Program-made: the position numbers and the translations under genes
DNA from: an uncultured Gammaproteobacteria bacterium
Lineage (GTDB): Bacteria; Patescibacteriota; Microgenomatia; Levybacterales; UBA12049
Assembly (NCBI GenBank): GCA_964540055.1
Contig: CAZILC010000005.1
Span: 5,597-69,596 of the forward strand
Reading direction: 5' to 3'
DNA length: 64,000 nucleotides
Shown here: positions 9,609 to 63,696 of the stretch, piece after piece
Layout of the letters: every line of letters starts with the position of its first letter
Numbering within the stretch: position 1 is the stretch's first letter
The notes under the pieces: generated by a model
Databases searched by the model: none
What the model was told of the DNA's origin: nothing
Seen by the model: the letters and a program-made list of their open reading frames with translations, nothing else

Positions 9609-9720
9609 AATGCTAATTAAACACTACCGTTATTTTTTTGTCTAGTGGCAAAAACATGGTCTAGTGATGCAAGATGGGGGATTGTATCTGGCTGGCACGC
9701 CTTGATAATCTGGGAGCTTT

Positions 9721-10293
9721 TTAAGCTAATTTAAGTTTCTCGAGTAATACTTCTAAAAGTTCTGGGAATTGCTCATAGGGTTTGTCTACACCAAAATGAC
9801 CTCTATTATTAAATTCGTGGAGTTCGGTATGTAATTTATCATGAACTACATGTGCTTCTTCATTAGAAATCCAAGGATCATCAGTTGAATGGAATTGTAC
9901 AATCCATTGTTGATTCTTTCGTATATTTTCCCATTTCCATGGAGTACTAAAATAACCACTTTCCTGTTCTTCAGCATCTCCCAAGTCTGTATAATAACTA
10001 CCAACTAAAACAGAACCGAATAATTTATTATTTTCTGCAAACCTCATTGCAGCTATAGCTCCCGTAGAGTGACCAACTAATATCGTATTTTCATCTGCAC
10101 CAAGACTCTTAATAAAGGGAAGCCAATATTCTGCTTTGCAGATCCAAGCATCCGGATAATCTTCAGCGATGATGGTAACATCTAATTCTTCCAGTTCCTT
10201 CTTTAACCAACCAAACCATATTTTATGTTTAGGAGATAAGATATCCTTTCCTCCGTTGTGATAACCAGGAACAAAAATTATTTTTTTATTCAT
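9721..10293 (-). CDS. RBBP9/YdeN-family serine hydrolase
   Basis: Aligns block by block with RBBP9 as I remember it: ...VPG..GG...WFGWLKKELE...WLPF...ILVGHSTGAIAAMRFAE...SGYFSTPWKWENI...IVQFHSTDDPW...GHF. TGcTATAAT lies 6 nt before ATG 10293. Confidence 0.85.
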   Translation of the reverse strand: MNKKIIFVPGYHNGGKDILSPKHKIWFGWLKKELEELDVTIIAEDYPDAWICKAEYWLPFIKSLGADENTILVGHSTGAIAAMRFAENNKLFGSVLVGSYYTDLGDAEEQESGYFSTPWKWENIRKNQQWIVQFHSTDDPWISNEEAHVVHDKLHTELHEFNNRGHFGVDKPYEQFPELLEVLLEKLKLA

Positions 10294-10415: not shown

Positions 10416-11303
10416 ATGTTGCAAGAATCGATAAGTAACTTAAGCACTACTAAAAAATGGTTATTAGGAATTCTATGTTTATTTTCCGGTGTTGCACCTC
10501 TTACGGCAAGATGGATACATGATGACTCTACAAAGGTTATATATGGAGTTGTTCTTGTTGGATTTTTTCTTATAGCAACAATATTGATTAAAAAAAGTTT
10601 ACACCTCAGACAGTTCTGGGAGCTGTCTTTCGCTTTTTTTATTTTTGCTCTAATTCAAGTTCTTAACAATACTCTTCCTGGATACATTAGGAACAATTTC
10701 CTTCACCAAAATCCCGTTGCAGGAAATCCATTAGCTTCAACAGTTTCGGGTACCCTTGCAATCCAGTTTATTGAAACTTTGATAGCTATTATTCCAATAA
10801 TTTTGTTGACAAAATTATCTGGCAGAAAACTTAACACAATTTATTTGCAAAAAGGGAAGATTGGAAAATGGTTTGTTTTTTCAATTATTGCATTTTTCGT
10901 ATTTTATATTTTATCATTCAGAATATCATCGCATCATTTATTTCCAATTCATGGCACTATGACATTAAGTCGATACCTGATGTTAACTCCTGCTTTATTC
11001 TTAATGGTTCTTTCAAATGGTTTTCAAGAAGAATTACTATTTCGAGGATTATTTCTTCAAGAATACAAGCGATTTTTTAGATTTCGAAATGCGAATATAC
11101 TCCAAGCAGTAATTTTTACTGTCGCCCACATAGGCGTAACTTATACGCCTTTGTCATTAGTATTTCTTTTTGCATTTGTATTTCCGATTGGACTATTTAC
11201 TGGTTATCTTATGAACAAAACTAAAAGTGTAATCGCTCCTGTTATTTTCCACGCAGGTGCAGATATTCCTATTTACCTCGCATTTCTTACTTTTGTATCA
11301 TAG
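10416..11303 (+). CDS. CPBP family intramembrane glutamic endopeptidase (CAAX/Abi type)
   Basis: Polytopic membrane protein with EELLFRG, FTVAHI and FHAGAD motifs. TGaTATTAT lies 6 nt before the ATG. Confidence 0.85.
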   Translation: MLQESISNLSTTKKWLLGILCLFSGVAPLTARWIHDDSTKVIYGVVLVGFFLIATILIKKSLHLRQFWELSFAFFIFALIQVLNNTLPGYIRNNFLHQNPVAGNPLASTVSGTLAIQFIETLIAIIPIILLTKLSGRKLNTIYLQKGKIGKWFVFSIIAFFVFYILSFRISSHHLFPIHGTMTLSRYLMLTPALFLMVLSNGFQEELLFRGLFLQEYKRFFRFRNANILQAVIFTVAHIGVTYTPLSLVFLFAFVFPIGLFTGYLMNKTKSVIAPVIFHAGADIPIYLAFLTFVS

Positions 11304-30647: not shown

Positions 30648-32888
30648 ATGAAACAAATTCTCGCGGCCGTTGGTCTTGTCGTTCTTATCATCACAATTAT
30701 CGCAGTTTATTTTACATGGACACATGTTGATGCCGAATCACAAAGACTCAAAGGAGATATTCAATACAGATCATATCTCGTAGCCGATAGTTTAAAAGGA
30801 ACAGTTGAACCGAATTTTACTAATAAATCGGATCAATATCTCCAGTCCGTTGTCGCAAATTTTGCTGATAAACAACGGCTCGCAGGCATTGCAATCGTTG
30901 ATAACACGGGAAAATATGTTGCCAAATCACCAAGTTTGAATAATGGCATTGCAAAATCCTCAACTTCAAATCAAATTATTACCGATGCGATGGATGGTGA
31001 TCAGGACAATGGAGATTTTGTGACGGTAAATAATAAAAGATATTATATTTATGCTTCCCCCCTTCATGATAAAAAAAGTGTTGTTGGCGGTCTTATCGTT
31101 ATTCAAAATGCAGGGTATATCTCAACGCAGCTGAATGATATCTGGAAAAGTGATTTGTTAAAACTCTTTCTGCAGGCATTTTTACTCTCCCTTGCAATCT
31201 TAATTATTCTCAGATGGATTATATTAATCCCACTTAAAAACCTTGTTGAATCTCTGCAAACCACTAGTCTGGGAACGAATAAAAAGAAATTGCCCAAAGT
31301 GTTTAATAATCCTTTTTTAAGCCCACTCATTAAAGAAGTAGGAACTATTCAGAAAAATTTAATTGAAGCCCGCATAGCGGCAAGTGAAGAAGCCAGGCTT
31401 CGATTGAAAAAATTTGATTCTCCCTGGACAACAGAACGACTGAAAGCCTTTGTCGCAGATATTCTCAAAGACAGAAAAATTTTTGTTGTGTCAAACCGTG
31501 AACCATACGTACATACCAAAGAGGGCAACACAATTGATTATCATTTTCCGGCAAGCGGCATGGTAACAGCAATCGAGCCGATCATGCAGGCAACGGGCGG
31601 CATGTGGATAGCACAAGGCAGTGGAAATGCAGACAAACTGGTTGTTGATGATAACGATACCATTGCTGTTCCACCAGGGGACCCATTATATACATTAAAA
31701 CGAGTCTGGCTTACACCTGAGGAAATCAAAGGTTTTTACGATGGTTTTTCCAATGAAGGAATTTGGCCACTTTGTCATATCGCGCATACGCGTCCGATAT
31801 TTAATAAAGATGATTGGCGGGAATATGTAAAAGTAAATGAAAAATTTGCGAGAACTGTTCTGAAGGAAATAAAAAACGAACAAAATCCGGTAGTCCTGGT
31901 GCAAGATTTTCATTTTGCACTGGTTCCACGACTCGTTAAAGACAAAAGACCTGATGCAACAATCGGCATGTTCTGGCATATCCCATGGCCCAATTCCGAA
32001 TCCTTCAGCATTTGTCCTTGGAAAAAAGAAATAATTGATGGGATGTTGGGTGCTGATATCATCGGGTTTCATACACAAACGCATTGCAATAATTTTATGA
32101 ATACAGTCGGTCGTGAACTCGAAGCACTTCGGGATATGGATACTTTCACCATCACAAAAAATAATCATACGACTGCAGTAAAACCATTTCCGATCAGCAT
32201 TGCATTTTCGAAACGTTCTACAGACCAGGAAAAATCGCAGGACACGCGAAGTAAAGATGCATTAAGAAAGATAGGAGTAAAAACAGATTATGTCGGCATT
32301 GGTGTAGACCGGCTTGATTATACGAAAGGAATAATTGAACGAATGCATGCGATAGAAATATTTCTTACGAAATATCCAGCATATATAGAAAAATTCACCT
32401 TTATCCAGATCTCAGCACCAAGCCGGACAGATATTCCCGAATATAAACAATTCGCAGAAAAAGTTGAGGAAGAAATAAACCGGATCAATAATAAATTTAA
32501 GAAAAATGACTGGAAACCGATACTTTTCCTGTATAAGCATCATTCACATGATGCAATTTATCCGTTGTACCGTGCAGCAAATGTGTGTCTGGTAACGTCA
32601 CTCCATGATGGGATGAATCTTGTTGCAAAGGAATTTGTCGCGGCACGTGATAATGAAAGGGGAGTATTGATCCTTAGCCAATTCACTGGCGCTTCACGCG
32701 AACTACGTGATGCACTTATTATAAACCCCTACAATGGTGAACAAACTGCCGAAGCGATCCATACAGCACTCACCATGAGAAGAGCCGAGCAAACGAGAAG
32801 AATGCGAAGAATGCGAGAAATCCTCCAAAGCTACAACATCTACCGCTGGTCCGCGGAACTTCTCAAAACAATGGTTGAATTGGGATAA
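30648..32888 (+). CDS. otsA: trehalose-6-phosphate synthase (GT20) fused to an N-terminal TM/extracytoplasmic sensor/TM/HAMP-like module
   Basis: The core starts at KIFVVSNREPYVH...GGMWIAQGSG...LKRVWL...FSNEGIWPLCH...VQDFHFALVP and ends ...LHDGMNLVAKEF. Residues 1 to about 265 contain two TM helices flanking about 150 aa, then an amphipathic linker. Confidence 0.9.
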   Translation: MKQILAAVGLVVLIITIIAVYFTWTHVDAESQRLKGDIQYRSYLVADSLKGTVEPNFTNKSDQYLQSVVANFADKQRLAGIAIVDNTGKYVAKSPSLNNGIAKSSTSNQIITDAMDGDQDNGDFVTVNNKRYYIYASPLHDKKSVVGGLIVIQNAGYISTQLNDIWKSDLLKLFLQAFLLSLAILIILRWIILIPLKNLVESLQTTSLGTNKKKLPKVFNNPFLSPLIKEVGTIQKNLIEARIAASEEARLRLKKFDSPWTTERLKAFVADILKDRKIFVVSNREPYVHTKEGNTIDYHFPASGMVTAIEPIMQATGGMWIAQGSGNADKLVVDDNDTIAVPPGDPLYTLKRVWLTPEEIKGFYDGFSNEGIWPLCHIAHTRPIFNKDDWREYVKVNEKFARTVLKEIKNEQNPVVLVQDFHFALVPRLVKDKRPDATIGMFWHIPWPNSESFSICPWKKEIIDGMLGADIIGFHTQTHCNNFMNTVGRELEALRDMDTFTITKNNHTTAVKPFPISIAFSKRSTDQEKSQDTRSKDALRKIGVKTDYVGIGVDRLDYTKGIIERMHAIEIFLTKYPAYIEKFTFIQISAPSRTDIPEYKQFAEKVEEEINRINNKFKKNDWKPILFLYKHHSHDAIYPLYRAANVCLVTSLHDGMNLVAKEFVAARDNERGVLILSQFTGASRELRDALIINPYNGEQTAEAIHTALTMRRAEQTRRMRRMREILQSYNIYRWSAELLKTMVELG

Positions 32889-32892
32889 TTTT

Positions 32893-33399
32893 ATGATAAA
32901 TTCACCTGAACGTATAATCGCAAATATGCTTATTGAACACTCGAGATTTGCTTGGCGTGCTGAAAGAGAAGCTGATACGAGGGATATTGCAAGGCTTGGT
33001 GAATTACTCACTGAAGACGCTAGTTTTGTAAGTGGAAAAATTTATAAAACCCGAAACGGTATGGCAGGTTATGCAATGAGAAATGTAACGTTACTTACTG
33101 ATGGTAGTCTACGAGCAGGTGAAGCCCCTAGTGACAATGCAGCTGTTAGCCTTGCCGGAATTACTTTATATAACTCAAACCAAGTAATACTTCCTAACCC
33201 GATATTTGGTGAAGAATTTGCATATAGAAGTTTTATGCATGTAGTTGACCTTCGAGAAGGAACACCAGCTTACGAAATACCTATGCTTCCAAATGTCGCA
33301 ATGAGAATCGATACGAATGCTGTCCGTCTGCTTCCAGGATGGAGAAGAAGACAAATGGCACATTTAGCAAGAGAACTCCTTGCGCCACCTCATCGATAA
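32893..33399 (+). CDS. hypothetical ORFan (168 aa), Arg-rich
   Basis: Starts 5 nt after the otsA stop (ATG 32893 preferred to the track's TTG at 32875). I recognise no motif. Confidence 0.55.
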   Translation: MINSPERIIANMLIEHSRFAWRAEREADTRDIARLGELLTEDASFVSGKIYKTRNGMAGYAMRNVTLLTDGSLRAGEAPSDNAAVSLAGITLYNSNQVILPNPIFGEEFAYRSFMHVVDLREGTPAYEIPMLPNVAMRIDTNAVRLLPGWRRRQMAHLARELLAPPHR

Positions 33400-46432: not shown

Positions 46433-49400
46433 ATGGCTGCAAGAACAATAGAAAGACCCACAGAAAAAGCGTATCTTAAGATACTGCTGCTTAATGGCGC
46501 ACCACTACCCGATAGTTTGATGCGCGACAGTAGAAGATCTGCACTGGCAGTCCTTACCAATATGGGCATGGTGCACTATGAACGTTCTAGAGAATTCCCA
46601 CAGATGCAAAGAGAAAATCTTGTGAGAGCAAACTTAGATGATCCAAGACAGTTAGTCACTACCACAAATTTTCTTCGTTCAAGCGCTTCCAGAATTTTTG
46701 GAGATCTTTTCAACCCTCGTGATTGGGATCAGACAATGATGCGCTCCTCAGGCGATATGAGACCTGAAACTCCCATTTCACCATCACTATCACCATATGC
46801 TCGACCTATGGTGTATGTAGCCCAGCGATTAAATGGTTCTGAAGAATATGAAACTGCTCTTGAATATATCGCTGCACGAACATATTTACATGCGATACAA
46901 GAAAGACAAAATGAGTCTACAGGCACTCATGGTAATCCAAGAATAAATGTACAAGAGATGGCCGACAGATTGGATATTTTTGGGAGAGTACAAAGGCTCG
47001 ATAAAATGCCTGTTCTTGATGAAATTTCACAGCGAATGCATGCAACAGTTATCAAACAGGAAAAAATAAACGCACAAAGAATACGTTCAGTCGTAGTTAA
47101 AAAGGAAGAAATACTTGAAAGGATAGAAATAGAAAATTCTGTAGATATGTTTGATAATTTAATTGCATATAGCAGAGCTCATCATGCACGACAAAAACAT
47201 GTCTTAAGAGGACGGCAAATGGAAGCATTCGACGACATTATTCAGACTGGAATACGAGGACATAAAGAAGGATATATTGAGGCTCCTACAGGATTTGGTA
47301 AAACTGTTCTGTTTGGTGAAGTAGCCGCTGCAGCAAATGTACCCACAGTTATTGTTGTCCCAAGAAAACGGCTCGTTGAGCAAACATATGAAAGATTAAA
47401 GGAATTTAATCCAGACCTTTCAGTCGGTCGCATGTATGGTGATGTAAAAGAATTTGGTCATCAAGTGACGGTAACAACATATCAAACAGTTACAGCAGAT
47501 TCGGCGGAAGGCTTTTATATCCCTTTTGATGAGTCAAAATTAGTAATTCTTGATGAGGTAGACGAGGCTACTGGAAGAGAACGGATAAAAGCAATTGAGA
47601 AAGTACCGGAAGATGCATTTTTAATGGGATTGTCAGCAACTCCCGTGAAAGTCACAGGAAAAGAATATGAGGGAAGTCGTGTCGCAAAAATGATGAACAA
47701 TGAAATTCATACCGTTACATTACGAGAAGGAGTTGAGGATGGATACCTTTCGTCTTTTTCAAATTATATTGTTAAAGTAGACTCGGATATCTCAAGAGTA
47801 GGAATATCAGAAGATGGAATATATAATGAAGCTGCTTTGGAAAGCATTATTAACACAGAGCCACATAATAAAGCTACAGTCCGTTTTTTCCTCAAGATGC
47901 GCTCAAATGATAGAAAGAAATACGGTAAGCGAGCGGGACCACTAACAACTTCCGTATACGCCTCCTCAGTTCAGCATTCAAAAGATCTTGCACTAGCGTT
48001 TCAAGATGCCGGTGTAAAAGCAGCTGCAGTATGGGGAAACCAGAATCCAAAGGAACAGGATGAAATTATGCGTAAATGGACATCAGGAGAAATTGAGATC
48101 GTTTGTAGTAAAGATTTACTAGTTCGGGGTAATGATATACCAAGACTTCGCTTAATTATGAATGTCGCCCCTACAGGATCTTATTCGGTTGAAAAACAGC
48201 GTAGTGGCAGGGGGCTACGTATTGATCCGGATAATCCGAACAAACATGCCATCATTGCCGATTTTATTTATCAAAACAGCAATAGAAAAAACCAGCAAGT
48301 AACCTTTGCTGAGGTCGCCGGTGGTGCAGAAATGTACAGATATGTATCCCCAGGTATGAAGCATTGGGTAGGAAATAAACGACGTACAGGCGAAGATAAC
48401 GATAGCAGTACTACAGGTAATGACGAATTCACTATTGATGGGCTCCAGGTTGTAACAGATGTCCGCGAGGTAATGCGTTTAGTGAAAGGAATTCAGGCGA
48501 CACGCATTGATGATGATATGACAATACTGGATACTGATTTCCCGAATACACAACTCGCACGAAGGGATGTTTTTGTGGGCAAAGACCAAGATTTACAAGC
48601 TATTGCTGAGACCGTAATCAGTGAAATTGAAGCGGAGTCTCCTGAGTTGGTTGTACAACGACAAAATTTGAATTGGCCCATTACCGTTGTCACAGATAGA
48701 CAGTTATTTATAGATAAAATGGTAGCAAAAGGGGCAAGATTAAAAGATAAAACAATCGAGCCTGTCCAAGAAGGAGATACGGTCATTAACACTCCTTTTC
48801 TATTCTCTCTTTTTGTCGGTGAACATCAGAAGGTGGCTAAGATAAAAGACGCAGTTCTAAGAGAGATGCGAGTAGAACAGCCTGCTCTTGTTGCACAGAG
48901 AAAAAACGTTAATAGAACAGCGACAGTCGTTCGGGATGTTGATGAATTTATAAGAAGGATGCTGGAAAAAGGCGCAGAAAGAAAAGGTACTCCGCAACCA
49001 ACAGCTGGAAAAGATGATCTTACCGTAACAAATAGATGGCTGAGTGATACTTTTGTTGGAGATGCAGGAAGACTTCGAGGAATTGCCTATGAAGTGATAG
49101 CACAAATTGAAGCTGCTCACCCTGATAAAGTTGCTTGGGTAAAAATAAATAAAGCAAGGGTTCCAATTGTAAGAGATAAAGCATTATTCATGCAGCGAAT
49201 GCAGGAACGAAAAGTCTCGCTTCCGGATGCCGCAGCAATTGGCGTTTTGGATTCAGATTTCCCGGTTACAAGTACCTATCTATTAAAGCGTTTTGCGGCA
49301 ACCTGGGAAAGATTACGAGCAGCTAAAGAGGCCGTCATGGAAGAAATAGAAGCAGAAAATTCTGATTTGATAGCAAAAAGGAAGAAAAATATTACCGTCG

Positions 49401-49459
49401 TGACAGATGCAGATATATTTGTTCGGAAAATGCAGGAGAAAGGAATTAAATTACGTTGA
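46433..49459 (+). CDS. SF2 (DEAD/DEAH, Res-subunit-like) helicase with unknown N-terminal region and four C-terminal tandem repeats
   Basis: Motif I APTGFGKT, motif II ILDEVDE, motif III SATP, motif VI QRSGRGLR. TGgTATAGT at 46414-46422 lies 10 nt before the ATG. The TGA stop shares a base with the tRNA-Gly 3' end. Confidence 0.85.
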   Translation: MAARTIERPTEKAYLKILLLNGAPLPDSLMRDSRRSALAVLTNMGMVHYERSREFPQMQRENLVRANLDDPRQLVTTTNFLRSSASRIFGDLFNPRDWDQTMMRSSGDMRPETPISPSLSPYARPMVYVAQRLNGSEEYETALEYIAARTYLHAIQERQNESTGTHGNPRINVQEMADRLDIFGRVQRLDKMPVLDEISQRMHATVIKQEKINAQRIRSVVVKKEEILERIEIENSVDMFDNLIAYSRAHHARQKHVLRGRQMEAFDDIIQTGIRGHKEGYIEAPTGFGKTVLFGEVAAAANVPTVIVVPRKRLVEQTYERLKEFNPDLSVGRMYGDVKEFGHQVTVTTYQTVTADSAEGFYIPFDESKLVILDEVDEATGRERIKAIEKVPEDAFLMGLSATPVKVTGKEYEGSRVAKMMNNEIHTVTLREGVEDGYLSSFSNYIVKVDSDISRVGISEDGIYNEAALESIINTEPHNKATVRFFLKMRSNDRKKYGKRAGPLTTSVYASSVQHSKDLALAFQDAGVKAAAVWGNQNPKEQDEIMRKWTSGEIEIVCSKDLLVRGNDIPRLRLIMNVAPTGSYSVEKQRSGRGLRIDPDNPNKHAIIADFIYQNSNRKNQQVTFAEVAGGAEMYRYVSPGMKHWVGNKRRTGEDNDSSTTGNDEFTIDGLQVVTDVREVMRLVKGIQATRIDDDMTILDTDFPNTQLARRDVFVGKDQDLQAIAETVISEIEAESPELVVQRQNLNWPITVVTDRQLFIDKMVAKGARLKDKTIEPVQEGDTVINTPFLFSLFVGEHQKVAKIKDAVLREMRVEQPALVAQRKNVNRTATVVRDVDEFIRRMLEKGAERKGTPQPTAGKDDLTVTNRWLSDTFVGDAGRLRGIAYEVIAQIEAAHPDKVAWVKINKARVPIVRDKALFMQRMQERKVSLPDAAAIGVLDSDFPVTSTYLLKRFAATWERLRAAKEAVMEEIEAENSDLIAKRKKNITVVTDADIFVRKMQEKGIKLR
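48530..49456 (+). repeat. four tandem ~75-90-aa protein repeats in the helicase C-terminus
   Basis: Each unit follows: ...F(V/A)G....L..I...V..EIEAE.P.LV..R.......VV.D...F...M.EKG..L. The units begin FVGKDQDLQAIAETVISEIEAESPELVVQR, FVGEHQKVAKIKDAVLREMRVEQPALVAQR, FVGDAGRLRGIAYEVIAQIEAAHPDKVAWV and FAATWERLRAAKEAVMEEIEAENSDLIAKR. Confidence 0.8.
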
Positions 49460-49647: not shown

Positions 49648-49974
49648 ATGATAAAGGAATTACTGTCCAACTTCACAAGAATTCTCCTAGGTAGCTTTCT
49701 TCCCGAAAACTTTCAACCATATCTCCGAATAATGTTTGCAATTGTTTTTATAACGTTTTTTGTTTACGGGATACAGATAGGAATTGGTACTATTTATACG
49801 TACGCTAACAATCCATCGGCATATAAATCGAGTGAAAAAAACAAAATTTGCAGTGATCTTAACAATACTACAATAAAATATATTTGCAAAAACTCGAGGA
49901 TCTCAAAAGTCGAAGCTCATAAAGTAACTTCATTACTTTCCTTTGTGCAGGATTTACATAAATTAACAAATTGA
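49648..49974 (+). CDS. hypothetical small membrane protein (108 aa)
   Basis: One to two TM helices and its own strong promoter. Its last 58 nt overlap the 3' end of the convergent GT4 gene, so its reality is uncertain. Confidence 0.4.
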   Translation: MIKELLSNFTRILLGSFLPENFQPYLRIMFAIVFITFFVYGIQIGIGTIYTYANNPSAYKSSEKNKICSDLNNTTIKYICKNSRISKVEAHKVTSLLSFVQDLHKLTN

Positions 49975-51176
49975 TCAGCCGCATTATCCCAACTTAGATC
50001 CTGTACATCATGCGCGACGGATCTACTGACTTTTTTATACTCTTCACCATCACAAAGTAATAATTTTATCTTCTTTGCAAGCCCAATTGGATTGTTAGCA
50101 GACGTTATGAGAATCGAATGATCTTTGTCTATCAATCGCGAAACGCCGGTAACATCTGTGGTAATGACAGGCACACCACATGCCATAGCTTCAACAGCGG
50201 TAATACCAAAGGATTCATAGTGAGAGGGCATCACCATCAAATCCGCGGCATTATAATAATCAGGAAGTTCCTCCTGCGTTTTTCTTCCTACAAATTTAAC
50301 AGAGGTTCTGATACCTAATGCTTCCCGGATCTCTGAAAGTTTCTTTAACTCTTTAGGCCATTCCTCCTCGTTATTGGAAATATCTCCACCAACTATCCAC
50401 ACAGTAACTTTAAGCTCCGGTCTTGCTGTTAAAAGAATTTTAAGTGAGTAGAGCAAAACATCAATACCCTTAAGTGGTTCAATTCTTCCCACAAATAAAA
50501 TTAACTTTTCATCAACATTCGCGCCGATGCTTTTTTTGGCTTCAATTTTATCAGTAGGTTTAAAAAGATCAAGATTTACACCGGGCGTCAAAACAGCAAT
50601 TTTTTCAGGATCTCCATCATATAAGTATTCAATATATTGTGCATCAGTTTCACTTGTCGCAATAATCTGATCTGCTGTTTTGACAAGCTGCTGTTCGATT
50701 TGGATACGTTCTTTACTTTCCCGCTCCTCATCACTGCGAGCAACCAAATTTTTCATCAACCCCAATGTATGAAAAGTCATAACAAGTGGAATTCCGTACT
50801 TCTTTTTTATTTCAACTCCTGCAATTCCTGAAAGATAATAATGGCAATTAACAATACGGTAGGAAATATTTTCCTTTTCAACAAAGCTAAATATATAATC
50901 AGTAAACTCGGGAATATACTTTTCTATTTCTTTTTTTGAAAGCGGTTCTTCTGGCCCTGCTGGAACATGAATAACTCGGACATGTTCATTTACCTGAACA
51001 ATTCTCGGACTATCCGACGATTGCGAACGGGTAAAAATATCGAGAAAATATCCTTTTTTCGCAAGTGCCTTGGAGAGTTCGAGCACATAAATATTCATGC
51101 CACCAATTTCGGCATCTGTTTCATCCGAGATTGGACACGTATGATAAGAAATAACAGCAAAACGCTTTGAGTTCAT
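49917..51176 (-). CDS. GT4 glycosyltransferase, MshA-like (D-inositol-3-phosphate glycosyltransferase family)
   Basis: RFAVISYHTCP...EIGGMNIYVLELSKALAKKGYFLDIFTR, VRVIHVPAGP...LSK, CHYYLSG, TFHTLGLMKN, DPEKIAVLTPGVNLDLF, MPSHYESFGITAVEAMACGVPVI. TATAAT lies 6 nt before ATG 51176. Confidence 0.85.
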   Translation of the reverse strand: MNSKRFAVISYHTCPISDETDAEIGGMNIYVLELSKALAKKGYFLDIFTRSQSSDSPRIVQVNEHVRVIHVPAGPEEPLSKKEIEKYIPEFTDYIFSFVEKENISYRIVNCHYYLSGIAGVEIKKKYGIPLVMTFHTLGLMKNLVARSDEERESKERIQIEQQLVKTADQIIATSETDAQYIEYLYDGDPEKIAVLTPGVNLDLFKPTDKIEAKKSIGANVDEKLILFVGRIEPLKGIDVLLYSLKILLTARPELKVTVWIVGGDISNNEEEWPKELKKLSEIREALGIRTSVKFVGRKTQEELPDYYNAADLMVMPSHYESFGITAVEAMACGVPVITTDVTGVSRLIDKDHSILITSANNPIGLAKKIKLLLCDGEEYKKVSRSVAHDVQDLSWDNAADQFVNLCKSCTKESNEVTL

Positions 51177-51211
51177 GCATGTATTATACTATAATTAAGA
51201 AACTCGAAGTT

Positions 51212-51808
51212 ATGCAAACCATAATCTACCTCATTAGACACGGAGAAGTAAAAAATCCAGATGCAATACTTTACGGAAGACTACCGCATTTTGGTTTATC
51301 TGAAAATGGAAGAAAAGAAGTAGCACAATCTGCTGAATTTTTAGCAGACAAACATATCGATGCAATCTATTCCGGACCACTTGAGAGAGCCAAACAAACA
51401 GCTGAAATAATTCAAAAAAAACTCGGCATCCCAGAAATCTATTTCAACGACCAATTAACTGAAGTAAAAACTTCATATGAAGGAAAAAAATTCAAGACGT
51501 TAGACAAGCTTCAATCTGAAATTTATTTAAAACCACTTGATGCATCTGATGAAACACTTGAGGATATTGCCCAGCGTATGATCATTTTTCTCCATGGCGT
51601 AATCAACAAAAACCCGGGAAACCATGTAGTAATTGTCAGTCACGGAGATCCGATCATGGCTCTGAAAGCGAAAATCAAACATAAAACCAAGCCGCTTGAA
51701 TTTATGAGCTTTAAAACAGATGACTATATCCAACATGCAGAAGTGTATGAAGTTACCAGTGAAGATAATGAACTTTCAATAAAAGCCGTATTCAAACCGC
51801 TCGAGTAG
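51212..51808 (+). CDS. histidine phosphatase (phosphoglycerate mutase) family protein
   Basis: IIYLIRHGEV (RHG catalytic motif), ...SGPLERAKQTAEII..., ...VSHGDPI. Start at ATG 51212, 36 bp from the divergent GT4 start. Confidence 0.85.
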   Translation: MQTIIYLIRHGEVKNPDAILYGRLPHFGLSENGRKEVAQSAEFLADKHIDAIYSGPLERAKQTAEIIQKKLGIPEIYFNDQLTEVKTSYEGKKFKTLDKLQSEIYLKPLDASDETLEDIAQRMIIFLHGVINKNPGNHVVIVSHGDPIMALKAKIKHKTKPLEFMSFKTDDYIQHAEVYEVTSEDNELSIKAVFKPLE

Positions 51809-51837: not shown

Positions 51838-51866
51838 TTGACTCACAAATCTTATAGCATTATAAT
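51838..51866 (+). promoter_or_regulatory. near-consensus promoter TTGACT-17-TATAAT
   Basis: TTGACT at 51838-51843 and TATAAT at 51861-51866. ATG 51876 lies 9 nt downstream, so the transcript is essentially leaderless. Confidence 0.6.
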
Positions 51867-51875
51867 CCCAGCAGA

Positions 51876-54134
51876 ATGCCAGCTGAAAGACCAGCAAACC
51901 ATGACAGAGGAGAACAATCGAAAAGGGCCAGTTGCGCGCAATTTTCTGTTGACACCTTTGTGCCACGTATGATCCATCCTCTTCTTTCGCCAAATATAAT
52001 CCAAAATTATCTTCGAGATGATGTATATTTGAGGCCAGGTATAGCAGACATGAGTCTTCATACTGTAGACCGATCAGTTGCAAGTACCATAGCAGGAATT
52101 GGTAATCCAGTGACTTATTTCACGAGTGAAAGAAGTCGGCAATTACATCAAGCTGAGGATCAAGCAAGAAGAGGATTTGGTCCGGCTGTTCTGGATCGTG
52201 CAAGAGAGTTGGAGATAAGTTTTACCTTAAACTCAGCACAAGCAACTACACGACTTGCAACTCCTTCTGAAAATGTAGCGGGAGACCTGCATCGTGAACA
52301 TGGTTATTTTGGTACTCTTGGTTGGAACGTTTACTCAGCAATCGATGATGGCAGCCCTGTCCTACTACTACCGCAAACGAGCAGAAAAGGGTCTACCTTC
52401 TTTCAAGCTGTAGATCTCAATGAACTACATTCCCGTGATCCTGAATTTCTTCCACAACGGATCAGAGACCATGAAGAAAGATATGCACTCAGAACCCTTG
52501 CCGATACTGTTGCATATAATCATGGTCTCCATGAGGTCCCAGAAGATGCATTAATTCCCGATACAATTCTTGAGGTAGCCCGACTTTCCGATCCTGCAGA
52601 AGCAGGAAGAGAACTTGGCTCTATGGCAGGTTATCTTTATTTTCTGGCAATGGTTGGAGACTTTCCTAATACCATTAAAGAGTTTCAAGAGGATATCTAT
52701 CAAAGAAGCACACCGATGGAGGAAGGAAAAACTGCATATATTGAAAGTTATCTAAGCCACATGGGAGAATGCCCATCCACCTCTGAGGCCGCCCGACAAA
52801 GGAACTCAATGCTCACACAGGCATATATTACGCTGGGGCGTCTTGATGTACGAGGTGCAGAAAAAGAAGGACTTCCGCAAAAGGATAGTCCTGTAACCCA
52901 AGTATTACGCAACCCCAGTTCATATACCTATAATGTCGATGAAAGAGATCAGATTAATACAGCTAGAAAAGACTATGCACAACAAGTCAGTAGATTCTTA
53001 GATCAAACGCAAGATATTACCGATAGAGATGCATTAACCGAAGCACTTGCACGAGATTTGCCTGAAACACATGAGGCTCTTACAAGGTTTCAGGAATGGT
53101 TAGGAACAGGGTTTAGTAATTTTGATGCTTTTCTTGAAGGGACGGTTCGCCGTATGTCTTGGAGTCGTGAAGGGTTTACCTTAGAAAGTATAAATGCGGC
53201 ACTAAGAGAAGAATTACGACTGACCGGTCTTGGCGCCAGGGGAGACTTTGAAGGAGTTCATATTCCCTATACTCCCCGTGATGTTTCGATCCACAACCCA
53301 CATCTTGAGGTAGTTCTTCCGCTTTTAGTAATACAAGAACTCCAGACACAAAATAACAAACGCGCCCTGAGGGATGCTCATCTTACCGTATTGCAGCCAC
53401 ACAATGATGAGAGGGCTCAACAATTACAACAATCGCGTCATGAACTTGCACAGTCAGTCGAAGACGACATCCGTAATTATGACCGATTATTGCAGGTATC
53501 TGAGGAGCTTAAGGACACATATGCCGCTTTTAAAGATCTAACAGGTATCACTGATGATGATATTATTCATTTGATAGATCTAGCCAAATCTCACACTCGT
53601 GATGAAGCTCATTTTCCTTACGGGCTATATAAAGCACTGGTAAATACCCTCTACATGGAGAAAGCGGGATTAATAAACACAAAAACCGCACCATTTAGGA
53701 CATTTCTTGGATCGCTTTTTCCCAATTATCCGGCAGCAGTATGGGAAAATCTTCACTCTGAATCTTTACAACCGACGGATGAAGCATTTGGTACTCAATT
53801 TACGGATTCGTTACGCGAGGCACTTGTTTTAACATCCGAATCTGAAGGTCCGGTCACCTGGCACTCAGCTGCACAACCCGCTTCAGTCAATCTTACTTAT
53901 CATAGACTTACATCACTCCCCCCAGAAGGACTTGTGACAGCAGTGGATGCAGTTCTTCTGGCTTTTGCGCCACCTACACCAGAAACAAGTGCAGAAGTAA
54001 TGGATACCCGAACTATCCAGGAACGTGCAGCCTATGACTTTTTACATCGACTAATTACTCACGCTGCTCCAGGTGAATTAAATGATGCAGAAAGAGAACT
54101 GCGACAACAATACGACGAGCTTAAAAGTAATTGA
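51876..54134 (+). CDS. large hypothetical ORFan (752 aa), Arg/Glu/Leu-rich, G+C-richer
   Basis: Long uninterrupted frame with a strong promoter. No TM segment, signal peptide or recognisable catalytic motif. N-terminus MPAERPANHDRG. Confidence 0.65.
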   Translation: MPAERPANHDRGEQSKRASCAQFSVDTFVPRMIHPLLSPNIIQNYLRDDVYLRPGIADMSLHTVDRSVASTIAGIGNPVTYFTSERSRQLHQAEDQARRGFGPAVLDRARELEISFTLNSAQATTRLATPSENVAGDLHREHGYFGTLGWNVYSAIDDGSPVLLLPQTSRKGSTFFQAVDLNELHSRDPEFLPQRIRDHEERYALRTLADTVAYNHGLHEVPEDALIPDTILEVARLSDPAEAGRELGSMAGYLYFLAMVGDFPNTIKEFQEDIYQRSTPMEEGKTAYIESYLSHMGECPSTSEAARQRNSMLTQAYITLGRLDVRGAEKEGLPQKDSPVTQVLRNPSSYTYNVDERDQINTARKDYAQQVSRFLDQTQDITDRDALTEALARDLPETHEALTRFQEWLGTGFSNFDAFLEGTVRRMSWSREGFTLESINAALREELRLTGLGARGDFEGVHIPYTPRDVSIHNPHLEVVLPLLVIQELQTQNNKRALRDAHLTVLQPHNDERAQQLQQSRHELAQSVEDDIRNYDRLLQVSEELKDTYAAFKDLTGITDDDIIHLIDLAKSHTRDEAHFPYGLYKALVNTLYMEKAGLINTKTAPFRTFLGSLFPNYPAAVWENLHSESLQPTDEAFGTQFTDSLREALVLTSESEGPVTWHSAAQPASVNLTYHRLTSLPPEGLVTAVDAVLLAFAPPTPETSAEVMDTRTIQERAAYDFLHRLITHAAPGELNDAERELRQQYDELKSN

Positions 54135-54214: not shown

Positions 54215-54622
54215 ATGAATTTTCTTGCAATTATCGTTGCGGCAATTGTAAATGTCGTACTTGGTGCATTATGGTATTCACCCGCACTTTTTGCCAAACC
54301 ATGGGCAAAAGGAGTAGGGATGACAAAAGAACAAATGGCCAAAGGTGCTAAAATGACACCAAAAATGTTTGTTCCGCCACTCTTAGCAGCAATTGTAACA
54401 AGTTACGTTATGGCATGGTTTTTTCATGCTCTGAATGTCACATCGCTTGGCGATGGAATATGGATTGCGTTTTTGGCTTGGCTTGGATTTACAACTACTG
54501 CACAAGTACTTAATTCCTGGGTATTTTCAAATGGCTGGCCAAAAGAAGTATATTTTATTAATACAGGATACCACCTCGTTGTATTCTGTATCATGGGCGC
54601 CATTCTTGCGGTTTGGAGATAA
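54215..54622 (+). CDS. DUF1761 family membrane protein
   Basis: MNFLAIIVAAIVNVVLGALWYSPALFAKPW... with 4 TM helices. SD GGGGGTGA lies 6 nt before the ATG. Confidence 0.72.
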   Translation: MNFLAIIVAAIVNVVLGALWYSPALFAKPWAKGVGMTKEQMAKGAKMTPKMFVPPLLAAIVTSYVMAWFFHALNVTSLGDGIWIAFLAWLGFTTTAQVLNSWVFSNGWPKEVYFINTGYHLVVFCIMGAILAVWR

Positions 54623-54679
54623 AGAAACGATAGTATACAATACGAATCGAACCATCTTATGATGGGATGTTTTTGTTTT

Positions 54680-55828
54680 ATGAAACTCTATAACACGCTT
54701 ACGGATACAATACAAACATTTACATCCTTAGCTACTAAAGAAATCAAACTCTACGTCTGCGGTATCACTCCTTATGACACGACACATCTGGGACATGCTT
54801 TTACGTATACCATTTTTGATGTTCTCTACCGATTTTTGGAATTTCAGGGTTACAAAGTAAACTATACACAAAACGTCACGGATATTGATGACGATATTTT
54901 AAAACGGGCCAAAGAAGTAGAGGAGGATTGGCAAAAACTCGGTACATTTTGGACAAATAAATTTTTAAATGATATGAAATCGCTTCGAAACATCCCGCCA
55001 ACACATTATGTTAAGGCAACCGAAACTATATCGACGATTATTTCATTTATCGAAAAATTAGAAGCCGATGGATTCGCTTATGAAAAAAACGGCAATGTGT
55101 ATTTTTCGGTTCAAAAAGATCCCGAATACGGCAAACTTTCAAAATATACCCGAGATCAAATGATAAAGCTTTCTAAAGAACGAGGAGCAAATCCAGATGA
55201 CCCGAACAAACATGATCCGCTGGATTTTATCCTTTGGCAAAAAAGTAAAAATGACGAACCTTTTTGGAATTCCAAATGGGGAAAAGGTCGTCCGGGTTGG
55301 CATATCGAATGTTCCGCAATGGCTTACAAATACCTTGACAAAAAGATTGACATTCATGGCGGCGGAAGCGATCTGCGCTATCCCCATCATGAAAGTGAGA
55401 TTGCCCAGTCAGAACAATTTACCGGAGAAAAACCCTTTTCGCAATTTTGGATGCATATCGGCATGGTAGAGTATAAGGGAGAAAAAATGTCAAAATCACT
55501 CGGCAATCTCGTGATGGTTTCGGATTTGTTGAAAACCTACTCACCAAACACCATCCGCTATCTACTTTTATCCCATCACTACCGGGAACCCTGGGAATTT
55601 TTCCAGGATGAACTTGATAAAGCAGATCAAACAATGAAACAGCTTGAATCCAAAATCAAAACGAACAAATACACTCAGAAAGAAAAACCAAATTTAGAAG
55701 AGTTTACCAATGCATTATCAGAAGATCTAAACACGCCAAAGGCACTTGAAATAATTAAGAAAACTATAAAGAAGAGAAATATTACCGACGCGAAGAAGAT
55801 GCTCGGGATCCTTGGGATCGAGTTGTAG
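54680..55828 (+). CDS. cysteinyl-tRNA synthetase paralogue with MshC-like architecture (catalytic core only, no anticodon-binding domain)
   Basis: LYVCGITPYDTTHLGHAFTY, NVTDIDDDIL, GRPGWHIECS, HGGGSDLRYPHHESE and KMSKS are present. The protein ends about 35 aa after DLNTPKAL (382 aa). Start chosen at MKLYNTLTD (54680). Confidence 0.88.
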   Translation: MKLYNTLTDTIQTFTSLATKEIKLYVCGITPYDTTHLGHAFTYTIFDVLYRFLEFQGYKVNYTQNVTDIDDDILKRAKEVEEDWQKLGTFWTNKFLNDMKSLRNIPPTHYVKATETISTIISFIEKLEADGFAYEKNGNVYFSVQKDPEYGKLSKYTRDQMIKLSKERGANPDDPNKHDPLDFILWQKSKNDEPFWNSKWGKGRPGWHIECSAMAYKYLDKKIDIHGGGSDLRYPHHESEIAQSEQFTGEKPFSQFWMHIGMVEYKGEKMSKSLGNLVMVSDLLKTYSPNTIRYLLLSHHYREPWEFFQDELDKADQTMKQLESKIKTNKYTQKEKPNLEEFTNALSEDLNTPKALEIIKKTIKKRNITDAKKMLGILGIEL

Positions 55829-59399: not shown

Positions 59400-59428
59400 T
59401 TGACTTCCAATAATTGTAGGTTTAAAAT
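59400..59428 (+). promoter_or_regulatory. promoter TTGACT-17-TAAAAT for the PfkB-like gene
   Basis: TTGACT at 59400-59405 (this is the track's apparent TTG start) and TAAAAT at 59423-59428. Confidence 0.55.
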
Positions 59429-59465
59429 TCCATTGAGCTCTTTAATTATTACAGAATTCTTACAG

Positions 59466-60737
59466 ATGAAAGGAAGTATCGAAGCACCCGTACTTGTTGA
59501 AAGGTCTTTCGCTGGTTTGAGACCAGATAGAGTACGACACAATGGACCGGTACTTATACCATATACTGGACCACTACGAATTGCAGGCGTCGGCCCATCC
59601 AATGTTGATATTCACGTTAGAGGATTAGATCCCCAAAAAACCCCAGATGAAGTTTACAGAAGAGCAACCGTAGGCGGAGTACTTTTAAGTAAAATTGCAG
59701 TTCCAGAAGTACGTAAAATAGAAGAATTGGAAGAAATTGTTGTCGCAGAGGGTGCCGAAACATTTAAAACTCCAGCAGGAAATATAGGAACCATTTTAGG
59801 AGTTATGTCTTCGTTATTAGAAGAAGGAACTGTAAGAGTAGATACACCTGTAGGAAGAGATCCTGACGGCAAATTAATCAGAAGAGACCTTAGAACGAGA
59901 GATAATCTACAATCTGTTTTTCACAGAATTAAGGGAAGAACACCAGTGAGTATAGTAATTCCAGCATGGATAGACGAAAAACCAGACAGGCTTGCTTTCA
60001 CCCACAAGCCCCAAAATATACAATCAAAATTTAAGGAATATTTGCCACAAGATCTGGATTTTGCCGTTGTTAACTCGTTAGCAGGACCACATTGGGCGCA
60101 GGATTTACGAGAGGGAGTTGACGAATTAACTAACCGCATACCACCAGTACCATATATTTATACTCCGGGTTCCTTGCAACTTGGTGCAATTATTGATGCC
60201 TCAGATCCTGGAAAAAGAGACCAAACAAAAATTGATGCTGTCTATCATGCAGTGAGGAATGCACATATACTCAGCCTTGATGTGGGTGAACTCAAAACGC
60301 TCATGAAAGGACACGGTTATCAAAAGGAGTATCTTGATGGGCTTCATAAGGAACTACTGTTAAAACAAGCACATGATGTTCTCGGATCAAAAGTAATAAT
60401 GGTTACTGATGGCAAACATGGCTCCTGGGGTTATGACAGTATAAAAGATCCTCATAATGTTTGGCATATTGGAATGAAGCCTGATAAACCTGGTGCTGAA
60501 ATTAAAAGTACTATTGGCGCAGGAGACAGATTTATTGGTGCAGCTGGTTTACAGTACTTTATGTCAGGTGATATACGAGAAGCTCTTCGTTGGGGAACTG
60601 TCAGCGGTTCACAAGCTGTGTTGGTGTATGGTGCCCGAGATAAACTTCCTACAAGAGATGCGTTCACTAGTTTGCTTGCGGAGCGCGATACGCCAAGAGC
60701 CTACATTGACAAAGCAAGACTTATCTCAACTAAATAA
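59466..60737 (+). CDS. divergent, enlarged PfkB/ribokinase-family sugar or nucleoside kinase
   Basis: LRIAGVGPSNVDIHV (N-terminal beta strand), TPAGNIGTILG (GG-like lid motif), a C-terminal KSTIGAGDRFIGAAG (the PfkB GAGD catalytic motif), and VSGSQAV. 423 aa counted from ATG 59466. Confidence 0.6.
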   Translation: MKGSIEAPVLVERSFAGLRPDRVRHNGPVLIPYTGPLRIAGVGPSNVDIHVRGLDPQKTPDEVYRRATVGGVLLSKIAVPEVRKIEELEEIVVAEGAETFKTPAGNIGTILGVMSSLLEEGTVRVDTPVGRDPDGKLIRRDLRTRDNLQSVFHRIKGRTPVSIVIPAWIDEKPDRLAFTHKPQNIQSKFKEYLPQDLDFAVVNSLAGPHWAQDLREGVDELTNRIPPVPYIYTPGSLQLGAIIDASDPGKRDQTKIDAVYHAVRNAHILSLDVGELKTLMKGHGYQKEYLDGLHKELLLKQAHDVLGSKVIMVTDGKHGSWGYDSIKDPHNVWHIGMKPDKPGAEIKSTIGAGDRFIGAAGLQYFMSGDIREALRWGTVSGSQAVLVYGARDKLPTRDAFTSLLAERDTPRAYIDKARLISTK

Positions 60738-62451: not shown

Positions 62452-63696
62452 ATGAAACGTTACTTTAAAAAGCATCGACTTACCTCCATCGGCATTCTGG
62501 TTCTGGCCATCTTAGTTATTCCCATCATGACGTATATAAGTAAACCTCATGATTCCCGAAGCAGAGCATCAGCAGCCTCAATTCTTTCATTTTCCCCGAC
62601 TTCATCTACATTCACACCAATTCAAAAAAAAGTTGGTGATCCGGTTGCTCTAGATGTCATGTTAAACCCTGGCACAAACGCGATTTCTATCCTCAAATTG
62701 GACGTTCAATATGATCCAAATTATTTTCTACCGGGATCCAATCCGATTGTAATTAATACTTCAGCATTTACCACTATAGTTGAAGGACCAGTAGTCAATG
62801 CGAATAATGGTGAAATCATTGTCACACTTTCCGTTGGCACAGATCCCACAAAAGCTATCAAAACATCCACAAAAATTGCGACCATTAACTTACTGGCAAA
62901 TGCAAAAACTAATGGCGGAACGGTATCGGTAACATTTGGTTCTCAATCACAAGCATTTTCTGTTGCACCAGGAGATCAAGCAACACAAAATGTCCTTGCA
63001 ACTGCAATGCCAGCTTATTTCAATATTGCAGCCTCCACAGGTGGCGGCGGCGGTGGAGGACCAACAACGAGCCCGAGTAACTCTCCTTCGGTTATTATAG
63101 ATAATCCAACTGATTTTCCGACTCAATCTGTGTCGCTCGCACCAGGCGATATTGCATTTAATTATTCAGTATTTTTACACGGCATAGGAAATAGTGGAGA
63201 CAGCACCAATCCCAACGGGAGTAGTTTTAGTAATAAAAATCCTAATACATACCAGAGAAATGTTGATATAACTGTGGTAAATAGTTCCGGCCAGGAGATC
63301 GTGAGTACGACAGGAACTATGTCATATGACTCGACGCATGGTGATTATACCGGTAGTGCAGATCTGGGGACAGGTCTTCCACCGGGCATTTATACAGTAA
63401 AATTGCAGTCGCAAAGTTATCTTCGCAAACTCGTTCCCGGAGTTATAACAGTAACTAGTTCTTCGACTTCATTTACTCTCCCTGCAGTTACCTTAACAGC
63501 AGGCGATATCAATGGAGACAATCAGCTAAATATCATCGACTACAACATCCTCTTGGGCTGCTACAGCGACATCCTAGCCGCCAGCTTCTGCCCCTCCCAA
63601 AACCAATCAGCCTCAGATCTGACAGACGACGGAGCAGTAAACCAATTCGACTACAACCTCTTCCTCAGAGAGATCCAAGTACAGGCTGGACAGTAA
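62452..63696 (+). CDS. secreted protein with cohesin-like N-terminal domain and C-terminal dockerin-like EF-hand repeats
   Basis: N-terminal anchor or signal, then a cohesin-like block (VGDPVALDVMLNPGTNAISILKLDVQYDPNYF...ATINLLA), a poly-Gly/Ser-Pro linker, and GDINGDNQLNIIDYNILL ... DLTDDGAVNQFDYNLFL (two dockerin-type Ca-binding segments). Confidence 0.72.
   Translation: MKRYFKKHRLTSIGILVLAILVIPIMTYISKPHDSRSRASAASILSFSPTSSTFTPIQKKVGDPVALDVMLNPGTNAISILKLDVQYDPNYFLPGSNPIVINTSAFTTIVEGPVVNANNGEIIVTLSVGTDPTKAIKTSTKIATINLLANAKTNGGTVSVTFGSQSQAFSVAPGDQATQNVLATAMPAYFNIAASTGGGGGGGPTTSPSNSPSVIIDNPTDFPTQSVSLAPGDIAFNYSVFLHGIGNSGDSTNPNGSSFSNKNPNTYQRNVDITVVNSSGQEIVSTTGTMSYDSTHGDYTGSADLGTGLPPGIYTVKLQSQSYLRKLVPGVITVTSSSTSFTLPAVTLTAGDINGDNQLNIIDYNILLGCYSDILAASFCPSQNQSASDLTDDGAVNQFDYNLFLREIQVQAGQ

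Follow-up and report, generated by a model that had tools for sequence, protein, structure and literature searches.

We studied a 64,000-nucleotide stretch of contig CAZILC010000005.1 (assembly GCA_964540055.1), hereafter the window, in which a GT4-family glycosyltransferase (GT) gene resembling mshA lies head to head with a gene for a histidine phosphatase. On balance we favour the view that these two genes form a conserved module for the first two steps of a pathway of the mycothiol/bacillithiol type. The module is found in Microgenomates-type bacteria that belong to the candidate phyla radiation (CPR) and in some Anaerolineae. The window is low-GC DNA (0.32-0.44), and the nearest relatives of its genes were in metagenome-assembled genomes of Levybacteria/Microgenomates-type CPR (Patescibacteria). 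The interpretation as a whole is built from comparative genomics, i.e., homologies, residue conservation, neighbourhoods and clade memberships, and is partly supported. The pair had been pointed out in an earlier reading of the DNA letters and their translations (the sequence-only reading), and gene neighbourhoods outside the scope of that reading lend the interpretation much added weight. Four features are considered here:

49917 to 51176, minus strand: MshA-like retaining glycosyltransferase of family GT4, 419 aa (from Pfam, NCBIfam and residue comparison).
51177 to 51211, no strand: divergent intergenic region of 35 bp, with -10-like hexamers for both genes.
51212 to 51808, plus strand: histidine phosphatase superfamily branch 1, 198 aa "long form" (PF00300, 109 bits).
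54659 to 55828, plus strand: protein like cysteinyl-tRNA synthetase (CysRS) without the anticodon-binding domain (ABD), 389 aa as a mechanically called open reading frame (ORF).

The sequence-only reading had placed the GT and phosphatase starts 36 bp apart on opposite strands; the divergence was confirmed, and the spacing was corrected to 35 bp (51177-51211). The phosphatase ORF called mechanically (51167-51808, plus strand) opens with a TTG and overlaps the GT start, but we took the ATG at 51212 as the true start because the homologues (n = 37) all begin with M-x-T-x-I-Y. All the peptide blocks by which the GT had been recognized (ISYHTCP, GGMNIYVLELSKALAKKG, VRVIHVPAGP..LSK, HYYLSG, TFHTLGLMKN and DPEKIAVLTPGVNLDLF) were found in the translation, and so was the TATAAT reported 6 nt 5' of the GT ATG (minus strand, 51188-51183), a distance at which the mRNA would be leaderless or near-leaderless. 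On the plus strand, TTGAGT (51167-72) and TATAAT (51190-95) are separated by 17 nt, with the latter 16 nt 5' of the phosphatase ATG. These promoter-like hexamers match the consensus only, in DNA that is rich in AT, and by themselves count for little.

The GT has the two-domain GT-B architecture, with Glyco_transf_4 (24-203) and Glycos_transf_1 (210-385) Pfam domains. Its top NCBIfam family was MshA (TIGR03449, 344 bits over the full length), and the runners-up were glgA_Coryne (124.5 bits), sucrose-phosphate synthase (SPS, 123.7 bits) and BshA (98.3 bits); the cut-offs of BshA (TIGR03999, 273.7) and SPS (TIGR02472, 576) were not reached. MshA was likewise the best family for the GTs of all ten relatives tested (255-416 bits, with the next family at ~100-160), and a true actinobacterial MshA (locus L170, see below) scored 623 bits on the same model. 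The best solved structure was Corynebacterium glutamicum MshA (CgMshA; 3c48/3c4q), aligned over the full length with three gaps (244 bits, 33.6% identity), and the second was the SPS Tll1590 (187 bits, 29.6% identity). Since both the NCBIfam and the structure scores favour MshA, the description of the GT as MshA-like, rather than BshA-like, was correct. An exact-protein look-up of the window GT returned no record.

Residues known from CgMshA were then located in the alignment. The UDP site of that enzyme comprises R231, K236, E316, F318 and E324, and its acceptor site includes G23 and H133 (PMC12182360). The UDP-site counterparts in the window GT (R231, K236, E321, F323 and E329) were invariant in an alignment with 13 CPR homologues, as were the acceptor-site counterparts G26, N28, Y113, H136, T137 and R157; K81, at the position of K78 in CgMshA, was the majority residue without being invariant. 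At the positions that tell MshA from SPS the window GT is in the MshA state (GGMN and not GGQN, HT and not HS).

A neighbour-joining tree was made of 228 sequences: the 150 best cluster representatives (drawn from 1.84 billion proteins), the GTs of the related loci and three structural references. The window GT fell in a clade of 61 sequences from CPR and a few Chloroflexi (76% bootstrap), within which were the GTs of 52 related loci (47 CPR-type and 5 Anaerolineae). SPS-like proteins and fusions of 620-780 aa branched outside both this clade and that of CgMshA, a split with only 33% support.

The phosphatase scored 109.1 bits on PF00300, against a gathering cut-off of 21.7. It has the catalytic set R9, H10 (within R9-H10-G11-E12), R59, E84 and H144 (SHGD), aligned in 38 family members, so that its identification as a histidine phosphatase with an RHGE motif holds. 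It stayed under all NCBIfam equivalog cut-offs: CobC (82.8 of 162.9 bits), dPGM_arch (75.9 of 225), PspA (57 of 350), SixA (40.9 of 74.5) and pgm_1 (34.7 of 81.7). Relatives also have a short subfamily of ~165 aa (RHGLAT...CTHG), confirmed by PF00300 and with the catalytic residues kept. The long and short forms track the two main GT subclades.

The pairing was surveyed in 80 related loci from species-representative genomes. The first 52 (L001-L052; 44-80% GT identity) comprise five from high-GC Anaerolineae and otherwise CPR loci (Levy-, Davies-, Gottesman-, Woese- and Roizmanbacteria), and the other 28 (L053-L080; ~40% GT identity) are from Chloroflexi. A His_Phos_1 gene directly abutted the GT in 33 of the 52 closer loci, in three arrangements and two phyla; the sequence-only reading had staked its proposal in advance on conservation of the pair, and the pair was kept. 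The arrangement was divergent in L001-L010, as in the window and L081; convergent, with the phosphatase downstream, in L013, L015, L026 and L032 (also in L082 and L083); and co-directional, with the phosphatase downstream and overlapping stop and start, in 19 loci that include the five high-GC Anaerolineae and encode the short subfamily (in L019, for example, the GT ends at 11230 and the phosphatase starts at 11227). A profile search located the phosphatase 5-8 kb from the GT in six Gottesmanbacteria loci. The flanking genes were wholly different between the three arrangements.

The taxonomic labels in the titles of many of these contigs look unreliable (L006, L008, L021, L023, L031-L033, L036, L038, L040, L042, L043, L045, L047, L050 and L051). 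Although they bear the CPR-type cluster, with low GC and Levybacteria-like genes, many are titled "uncultured Gammaproteobacteria/Pseudomonadales bacterium", and others Saccharimonadales, Acidiferrales or Sulfotelmatobacter.

One could suppose that the two genes have no functional link, the phosphatase being a general CobC/PspA/PGM-like enzyme and the GT an envelope or glycolipid GT, neighbours only through inherited gene order in compact genomes. The phosphatase does reach no specific equivalog, with CobC, dPGM and PspA as its top matches, a long syntenic block is common to L001-L010, L081 and the window, and the label MshA is routinely given too freely to GT4 enzymes. However, inherited gene order was ruled out because the adjacency persists through three orientations, in two phyla, amid unrelated flanks and with two subfamilies of phosphatase whose distribution follows the GT tree, and we regard the absence of any link as very improbable. 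An adjacency conserved in such varied arrangements therefore indicates that GT and phosphatase are functionally coupled, as a synthase/phosphatase couple predicts, and their putative role as the couple for the first two steps is well supported.

The donor sugar is suggested by other neighbours. PIG-L/LmbE deacetylase genes lay beside the GT or the GT-phosphatase pair in four CPR loci: in L045 the GT, phosphatase and PIG-L genes overlap in this order in an operon, in L035 and L040 the PIG-L gene is divergent from the GT, and in L036 it is downstream. The best NCBIfam families of these proteins were deacetylases of thiol pathways (BshB1, Mca and MshB), with scores that stayed under the cut-offs, and BshB1 was the top match of those of L045 and L036 (124 and 103 bits). 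Orthologues of PIG-L occur widely across Patescibacteria, Levybacteria among them. In the operon of Gottesmanbacteria the GT is the third gene, after GlmS (632 bits) and a NagB-like gene. Because of the PIG-L neighbours and this operon we favour an N-acetylhexosamine donor with later deacetylation, as in MshA/MshB, BshA/BshB or PIG-A/PIG-L, and N-acetylglucosamine (GlcNAc) is reasonably supported as the predicted donor.

The same neighbours bear on a second explanation, in which the couple would make a compatible solute, a neutral glycoside osmolyte reached through a phosphorylated intermediate and no thiol, and the CysRS-like gene would be the housekeeping CysRS. The logic would be that of SPS and sucrose-phosphate phosphatase (SPP), GpgS/GpgP or MpgS/MpgP, with a product such as hexosyl- or GlcNAc-glycerate from 3-phosphoglycerate. 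Osmolytes are classically made by a synthase together with a phosphatase; SPS-type enzymes (Tll1590, 187 bits) are neighbours of the GT family, whose relatives include SPS-like fusions; the window holds another osmolyte-type gene, the OtsA-like GT20 (see below); and the score of the CysRS-like protein is above the cysS cut-off. A further point in favour is Rv2419c, the glucosyl-3-phosphoglycerate phosphatase of mycobacteria, which is also a histidine phosphatase. Yet the PIG-L genes of four loci and the GlmS/NagB-like operon would have no role in an osmolyte derived from UDP-Glc, and this context therefore weighs against a sucrose- or glucosylglycerate-type product. The GT moreover scored 124 bits on the SPS model and 344 on MshA, and the repeated pairing of PIG-L with CysRS-like genes (see below) would need a coincidence. 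We consider an osmolyte couple unlikely.

The gene of the CysRS-like protein starts 2.9 kb downstream of the phosphatase; homologues begin at its M8 (ATG 54680). Its only Pfam domain was PF01406, and the ABD was absent in all the 120 closest homologues, which measure 300-400 aa after discounting mis-called N-termini. The tails past the DLNTP motif are 27-62 aa in the ABD-less clade and ~100-125 aa in canonical CysRS. The motifs C34 (CGITPY), HLGH (43-46), C218, PHHE (242-245) and KMSKS (276-280) are kept, and there is an MshC-type insertion, ERGANPDDPNK (174-184). By eye, CGITPYD(A/T)THLGH, QNVTD, GNLV(L/M)VS and the C-terminal end point are common to this protein and Mycobacterium smegmatis MshC, and so is the five-residue ERG-x-x-PD-x-P-x-K insertion. 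The Zn/cysteine-site residues of M. smegmatis MshC (C43, T46, T83, C231 and H256) have counterparts in C34, T37, T74, C218 and the PHHE histidine, a test that is not discriminating because these residues are common to CysRS. Relatives of the protein scored 349-367 bits on the MshC model, and the HMM scores of the CPR proteins were intermediate.

A neighbour-joining tree of 107 sequences and 333 columns, whose reference set came from a metagenome scan with the CysRS-like alignment and was mostly ordinary CysRS, separated an ABD-less group from 65 canonical CysRS on a long stem (200/200 bootstraps). The group consisted of M. smegmatis MshC, a metagenomic MshC of 601 bits, 15 high-GC ABD-less proteins and 25 low-GC CPR proteins including that of the window, and the clade has the insertion ERGxxPxDPxK in common. 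Residues invariant in canonical CysRS were altered at 7 of 25 signature columns in the CPR proteins.

The high-GC ABD-less proteins (L087, L089, L103, L110, L132, L144 and others) are on metagenome contigs of GC 0.58-0.75. They scored 392-413 bits on MshC, below its cut-off, and 340-397 on cysS, where they equal or slightly exceed the cut-off. Their place inside the MshC clade in spite of such scores implies that the ABD-less clade is broader than annotated MshC; automatic annotation will name them cysteine--tRNA ligase.

In the window, in L001-L010 and in L081, the CysRS-like gene comes after the phosphatase and is read from the same strand. We rejected this adjacency as decisive alone, since L081 showed the whole block to be syntenic, with insertions. 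Because the Levybacteria adjacency is inside a syntenic block, it is the PIG-L pairings in other lineages that carry the ligase argument: in four such lineages (Daviesbacteria L084/L085, and also L088, L167 and L168) PIG-L and ABD-less CysRS-like genes form divergent pairs, 22-50 bp apart, with unrelated flanks. The pair of L088 came from the metagenome scan mentioned above. The four families are thus joined in a neighbourhood network by GT-phosphatase, GT/phosphatase-PIG-L, phosphatase-ligase and PIG-L-ligase links. As a separate and anecdotal observation, a peptide methionine sulfoxide reductase (PMSR) gene, a redox-repair neighbour, is convergent with the ligase-like gene of the pair in L168 (303-2741) and overlaps it. 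Least certain of all the assignments is that of the CysRS-like protein, a candidate cysteine ligase or alternatively the CysRS of the cell.

A third explanation would keep the first three steps of the pathway (see below) and have the amine acylated otherwise, by a FemAB-like or GNAT transferase that takes aminoacyl-tRNA or acyl-CoA as its donor. In that case the ABD-less protein would be a real, unusual CysRS supplying Cys-tRNA, or unrelated, and the end product possibly no free thiol, e.g., a glycoconjugate of the envelope or an aminoglycoside resembling an antibiotic. Six Chloroflexi loci (L054, L056, L058, L067, L072 and L075) indeed have an Acetyltransf_6/FemAB-like two-domain gene (~320-355 aa) on the strand of the GT and directly upstream of it, and L035 has a FemAB-like gene (9023-9976, minus strand) next to PIG-L and divergent from its GT and phosphatase. 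GT4 and PIG-L couples also start the GPI-anchor and 2-deoxystreptamine aminoglycoside pathways, which was counted for this explanation, and the CPR CysRS-like protein retains many canonical CysRS residues. Against it, a Fem-like gene was absent from most CPR loci and, by jackhmmer, from the whole window, and the ABD-less protein has no domain for reading the tRNA-Cys anticodon and sits in the MshC clade (200/200). We judge this course improbable. The FemAB-like gene may be an MshD analogue, or may serve an aminoacyl-tRNA-dependent acylation step, alternative or additional.

The pathway that we propose would run in four steps. By homology and context, the GT would take GlcNAc from UDP-GlcNAc and attach it to an acceptor that carries a phosphate, giving GlcNAc-X-P; from the homology to MshA the putative acceptor is most likely 1L-myo-inositol-1-phosphate (= D-Ins-3-P). 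The phosphatase, given its conserved adjacency, would strip the phosphate to leave GlcNAc-X, a role of the MshA2 type. A PIG-L/LmbE deacetylase, suggested by related genomes and encoded, if at all, outside the window, would free the sugar amine to give GlcN-X. In the last and least certain step the ABD-less CysRS paralogue (54659-55828) would ligate cysteine in an ATP-dependent manner, as MshC does, and the product would be Cys-GlcN-X, a low-molecular-weight thiol. That Microgenomates-type CPR and some Anaerolineae make such a hitherto undescribed thiol by a four-gene pathway, with the phosphatase as the first enzyme of the "MshA2" step to be assigned a gene, is a tentative proposal that we hold at somewhat less than even weight.

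Several results weigh against this interpretation. The 344 bits of the GT are under the MshA equivalog cut-off (462.5), and its identity to CgMshA is only 33.6%. In the GT tree, CgMshA and the representatives at least 42% identical to it formed a separate clade (94%). The window GT is outside it, and its position deeper in the tree, towards MshA, is backed by only 33%. The phylogenetic check that the sequence-only reading had suggested was answered in part: closeness to MshA by score stood, membership of the actinobacterial MshA clade did not, and the split between the MshA and SPS sides has the 33% just given. By the tests run, the GT is MshA-like in sequence without being a bona fide MshA. 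N25, K78, Y110, T134 and R154 of CgMshA are taken as further Ins-P-site residues, but the phosphate-site residues are largely common to SPS-type enzymes and so do not fix the acceptor. No phosphatase was within reach of the GT in 13 of the 52 closer loci or near it in any of the 28 distant Chloroflexi loci (L053-L080). Searches of the window for an inositol-phosphate synthase, a PIG-L gene and an MshD-like gene came back empty (Pfam over 26-64 kb, a motif search and, for PIG-L and Fem-like genes, jackhmmer over the whole window). The CysRS-like protein scored 427.7 bits on cysS (TIGR00435), above the cut-off of 340, although over model positions 1-381 of 466 only, and 406.4 on MshC (TIGR03447), below the cut-off of 485.1. 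At 14 of 25 positions that diverged in true MshC, the CPR proteins have the canonical CysRS residue. The phosphatase-ligase adjacency of Levybacteria lies inside a syntenic block of more than 10 kb, interrupted by variable insertions.

Two further searches concerned inositol. A motif for myo-inositol-1-phosphate synthase (MIPS) gave no match in the window and the fetched loci, which is a weak negative. A PfkB-family gene (59400-60737) was considered as an inositol kinase and dropped, as it gave weak Pfk-2 and ribokinase matches only.

[quoted passage not shown] It differs in that the CPR components are all below the MshA/MshB/MshC-type equivalog cut-offs and in clades of their own; that the hosts are CPR and Chloroflexi, not Actinobacteria, and a dedicated histidine phosphatase stands beside the GT; and that the window yielded neither an MshD nor an inositol-phosphate synthase. 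The CPR/Chloroflexi genes moreover occur in pairs or triplets, whereas one actinobacterial mshA locus has only YbjN, with a true Gpm 3.3 kb off.

Bacillithiol synthesis (BshA, BshB and BshC) likewise proceeds by a GT4, then a PIG-L deacetylase and then cysteine addition, and its BshB1 is the best match of the PIG-L proteins of L045 and L036. However, BshA needs no phosphatase because it uses unphosphorylated L-malate, its model gave only 98 bits on the window GT, and BshC is unrelated to CysRS. In SPS/SPP (Tll1590, PDB 6kih; Halothermothrix orenii SPS, 2r60) a GT4 also acts on a phosphorylated acceptor and is followed by a dedicated phosphatase, and SPS, the second-best structural relative (187 bits), has phosphate-site Y, H and R in common with the window GT. 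SPP, in contrast, belongs to the HAD phosphatases and is often found as a fusion with SPS; the window GT has MshA-state residues and an SPS score of 124 against a cut-off of 576, and the PIG-L/GlmS context does not fit.

With GpgS and GpgP (Rv2419c), a glycoside phosphate is dephosphorylated by an enzyme of the histidine phosphatase superfamily that was once annotated as a PGM; GpgS belongs to GT81, not GT4, and a PDB search at E<=1e-5 gave no relationship between the window phosphatase and Rv2419c. NeoM/BtrM and NeoL/BtrD of the 2-deoxystreptamine aminoglycosides are a GT4 followed by a PIG-L-family de-N-acetylase. The same order is seen in PIG-A/PIG-L of the GPI anchor, where an MshA-related GT4 GlcNAc transferase is followed by a PIG-L-family de-N-acetylase; neither system has a phosphatase or a cysteine ligase, and their acceptors are a lipid or an aminocyclitol. 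The relationship of PIG-A, the GT4 GlcNAc transferase of the GPI-anchor pathway, to MshA has been described (PMC12182360).

Three actinobacterial mshA loci were compared with those of CPR. All have mshA next to YbjN, and only that of L170 was also scored against the model (the 623 bits above). In L170 (6001-12080), the one long contig of the three, YbjN and an ABC-F gene come after the true mshA, and at +3.3 kb from mshA a phosphoglyceromutase (His_Phos_1) overlaps an IMPase-family (HisN-like) gene. We rejected this His_Phos_1 gene as an orthologue of the CPR phosphatase, since it is a true phosphoglyceromutase (416 bits); in Mycobacterium and Corynebacterium, too, gpm1 is near mshA. None of the three loci had an orthologue of the CPR phosphatase, and for this reason the phosphatase is only a lead for Actinobacteria. 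The sequence-only suggestion that it is a candidate for the missing dephosphorylation step thus stands for the bacteria studied here, where the pairing (33 of 52 loci) speaks for it, and for the actinobacterial MshA2 is reduced to that lead.

Other genes of the window were noted in passing. Between the phosphatase and the CysRS-like gene are a 752-aa ORF (51876-54134, plus strand; GC 0.436 against ~0.38) without a Pfam or NCBIfam family, preceded by a strong promoter-like site (TTGACT-17-TATAAT, 51838-51866), and a DUF1761 membrane protein gene (54215-54622, plus strand). The same interval is empty in L001-L010 and holds a 155-aa gene in L081, so the two genes look like a lineage-specific insertion. 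Farther to the left, a 746-aa protein (30648-32888, plus strand) has an N-terminal Cache-like sensor domain fused to GT20 (OtsA/trehalose-6-phosphate-synthase-type, 405 bits), and the end of its gene is overlapped by a 174-aa ORF of no family (32875-33399, plus strand); these may be a second synthase couple, perhaps with a phosphatase, for a compatible solute. A ResIII/DEAD-box helicase of 1008 aa (46433-49459, plus strand) carries in its C-terminal third, by eye, about four tandem repeats of a unit of ~75 aa (…VVQRQNLNWPITVVTDRQLFIDKMVAKGARLKD… and variants), where no family was found. A 414-aa protein (62452-63696, plus strand) gave weak cohesin (58-164) and dockerin (350-404) matches, unusual for a CPR genome.

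We know of no MshA2 gene assigned in Actinobacteria, and papers on mycothiol name "the phosphatase MshA2" without a gene. Our literature search returned no report of mycothiol, low-molecular-weight thiols or MIPS for CPR, Patescibacteria or Microgenomates. Thiols of the mycothiol type count as a hallmark of Actinobacteria, and msh genes annotated elsewhere are routinely disregarded; in one study such annotations were set to zero for all but Actinomycetota. The phosphatase step of mycothiol synthesis has been named but gene-less for about two decades, and a small, easily expressed candidate makes it testable in vitro; if the proposal is true, the search for the actinobacterial MshA2 would turn to histidine-phosphatase paralogues. 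An ABD-less clade wider than actinobacterial MshC bears on the annotation of "cysS" in CPR and on markers of genome completeness. If the pathway operates as proposed, sugar-thiol redox chemistry would extend to ultra-small, metabolically reduced bacteria.

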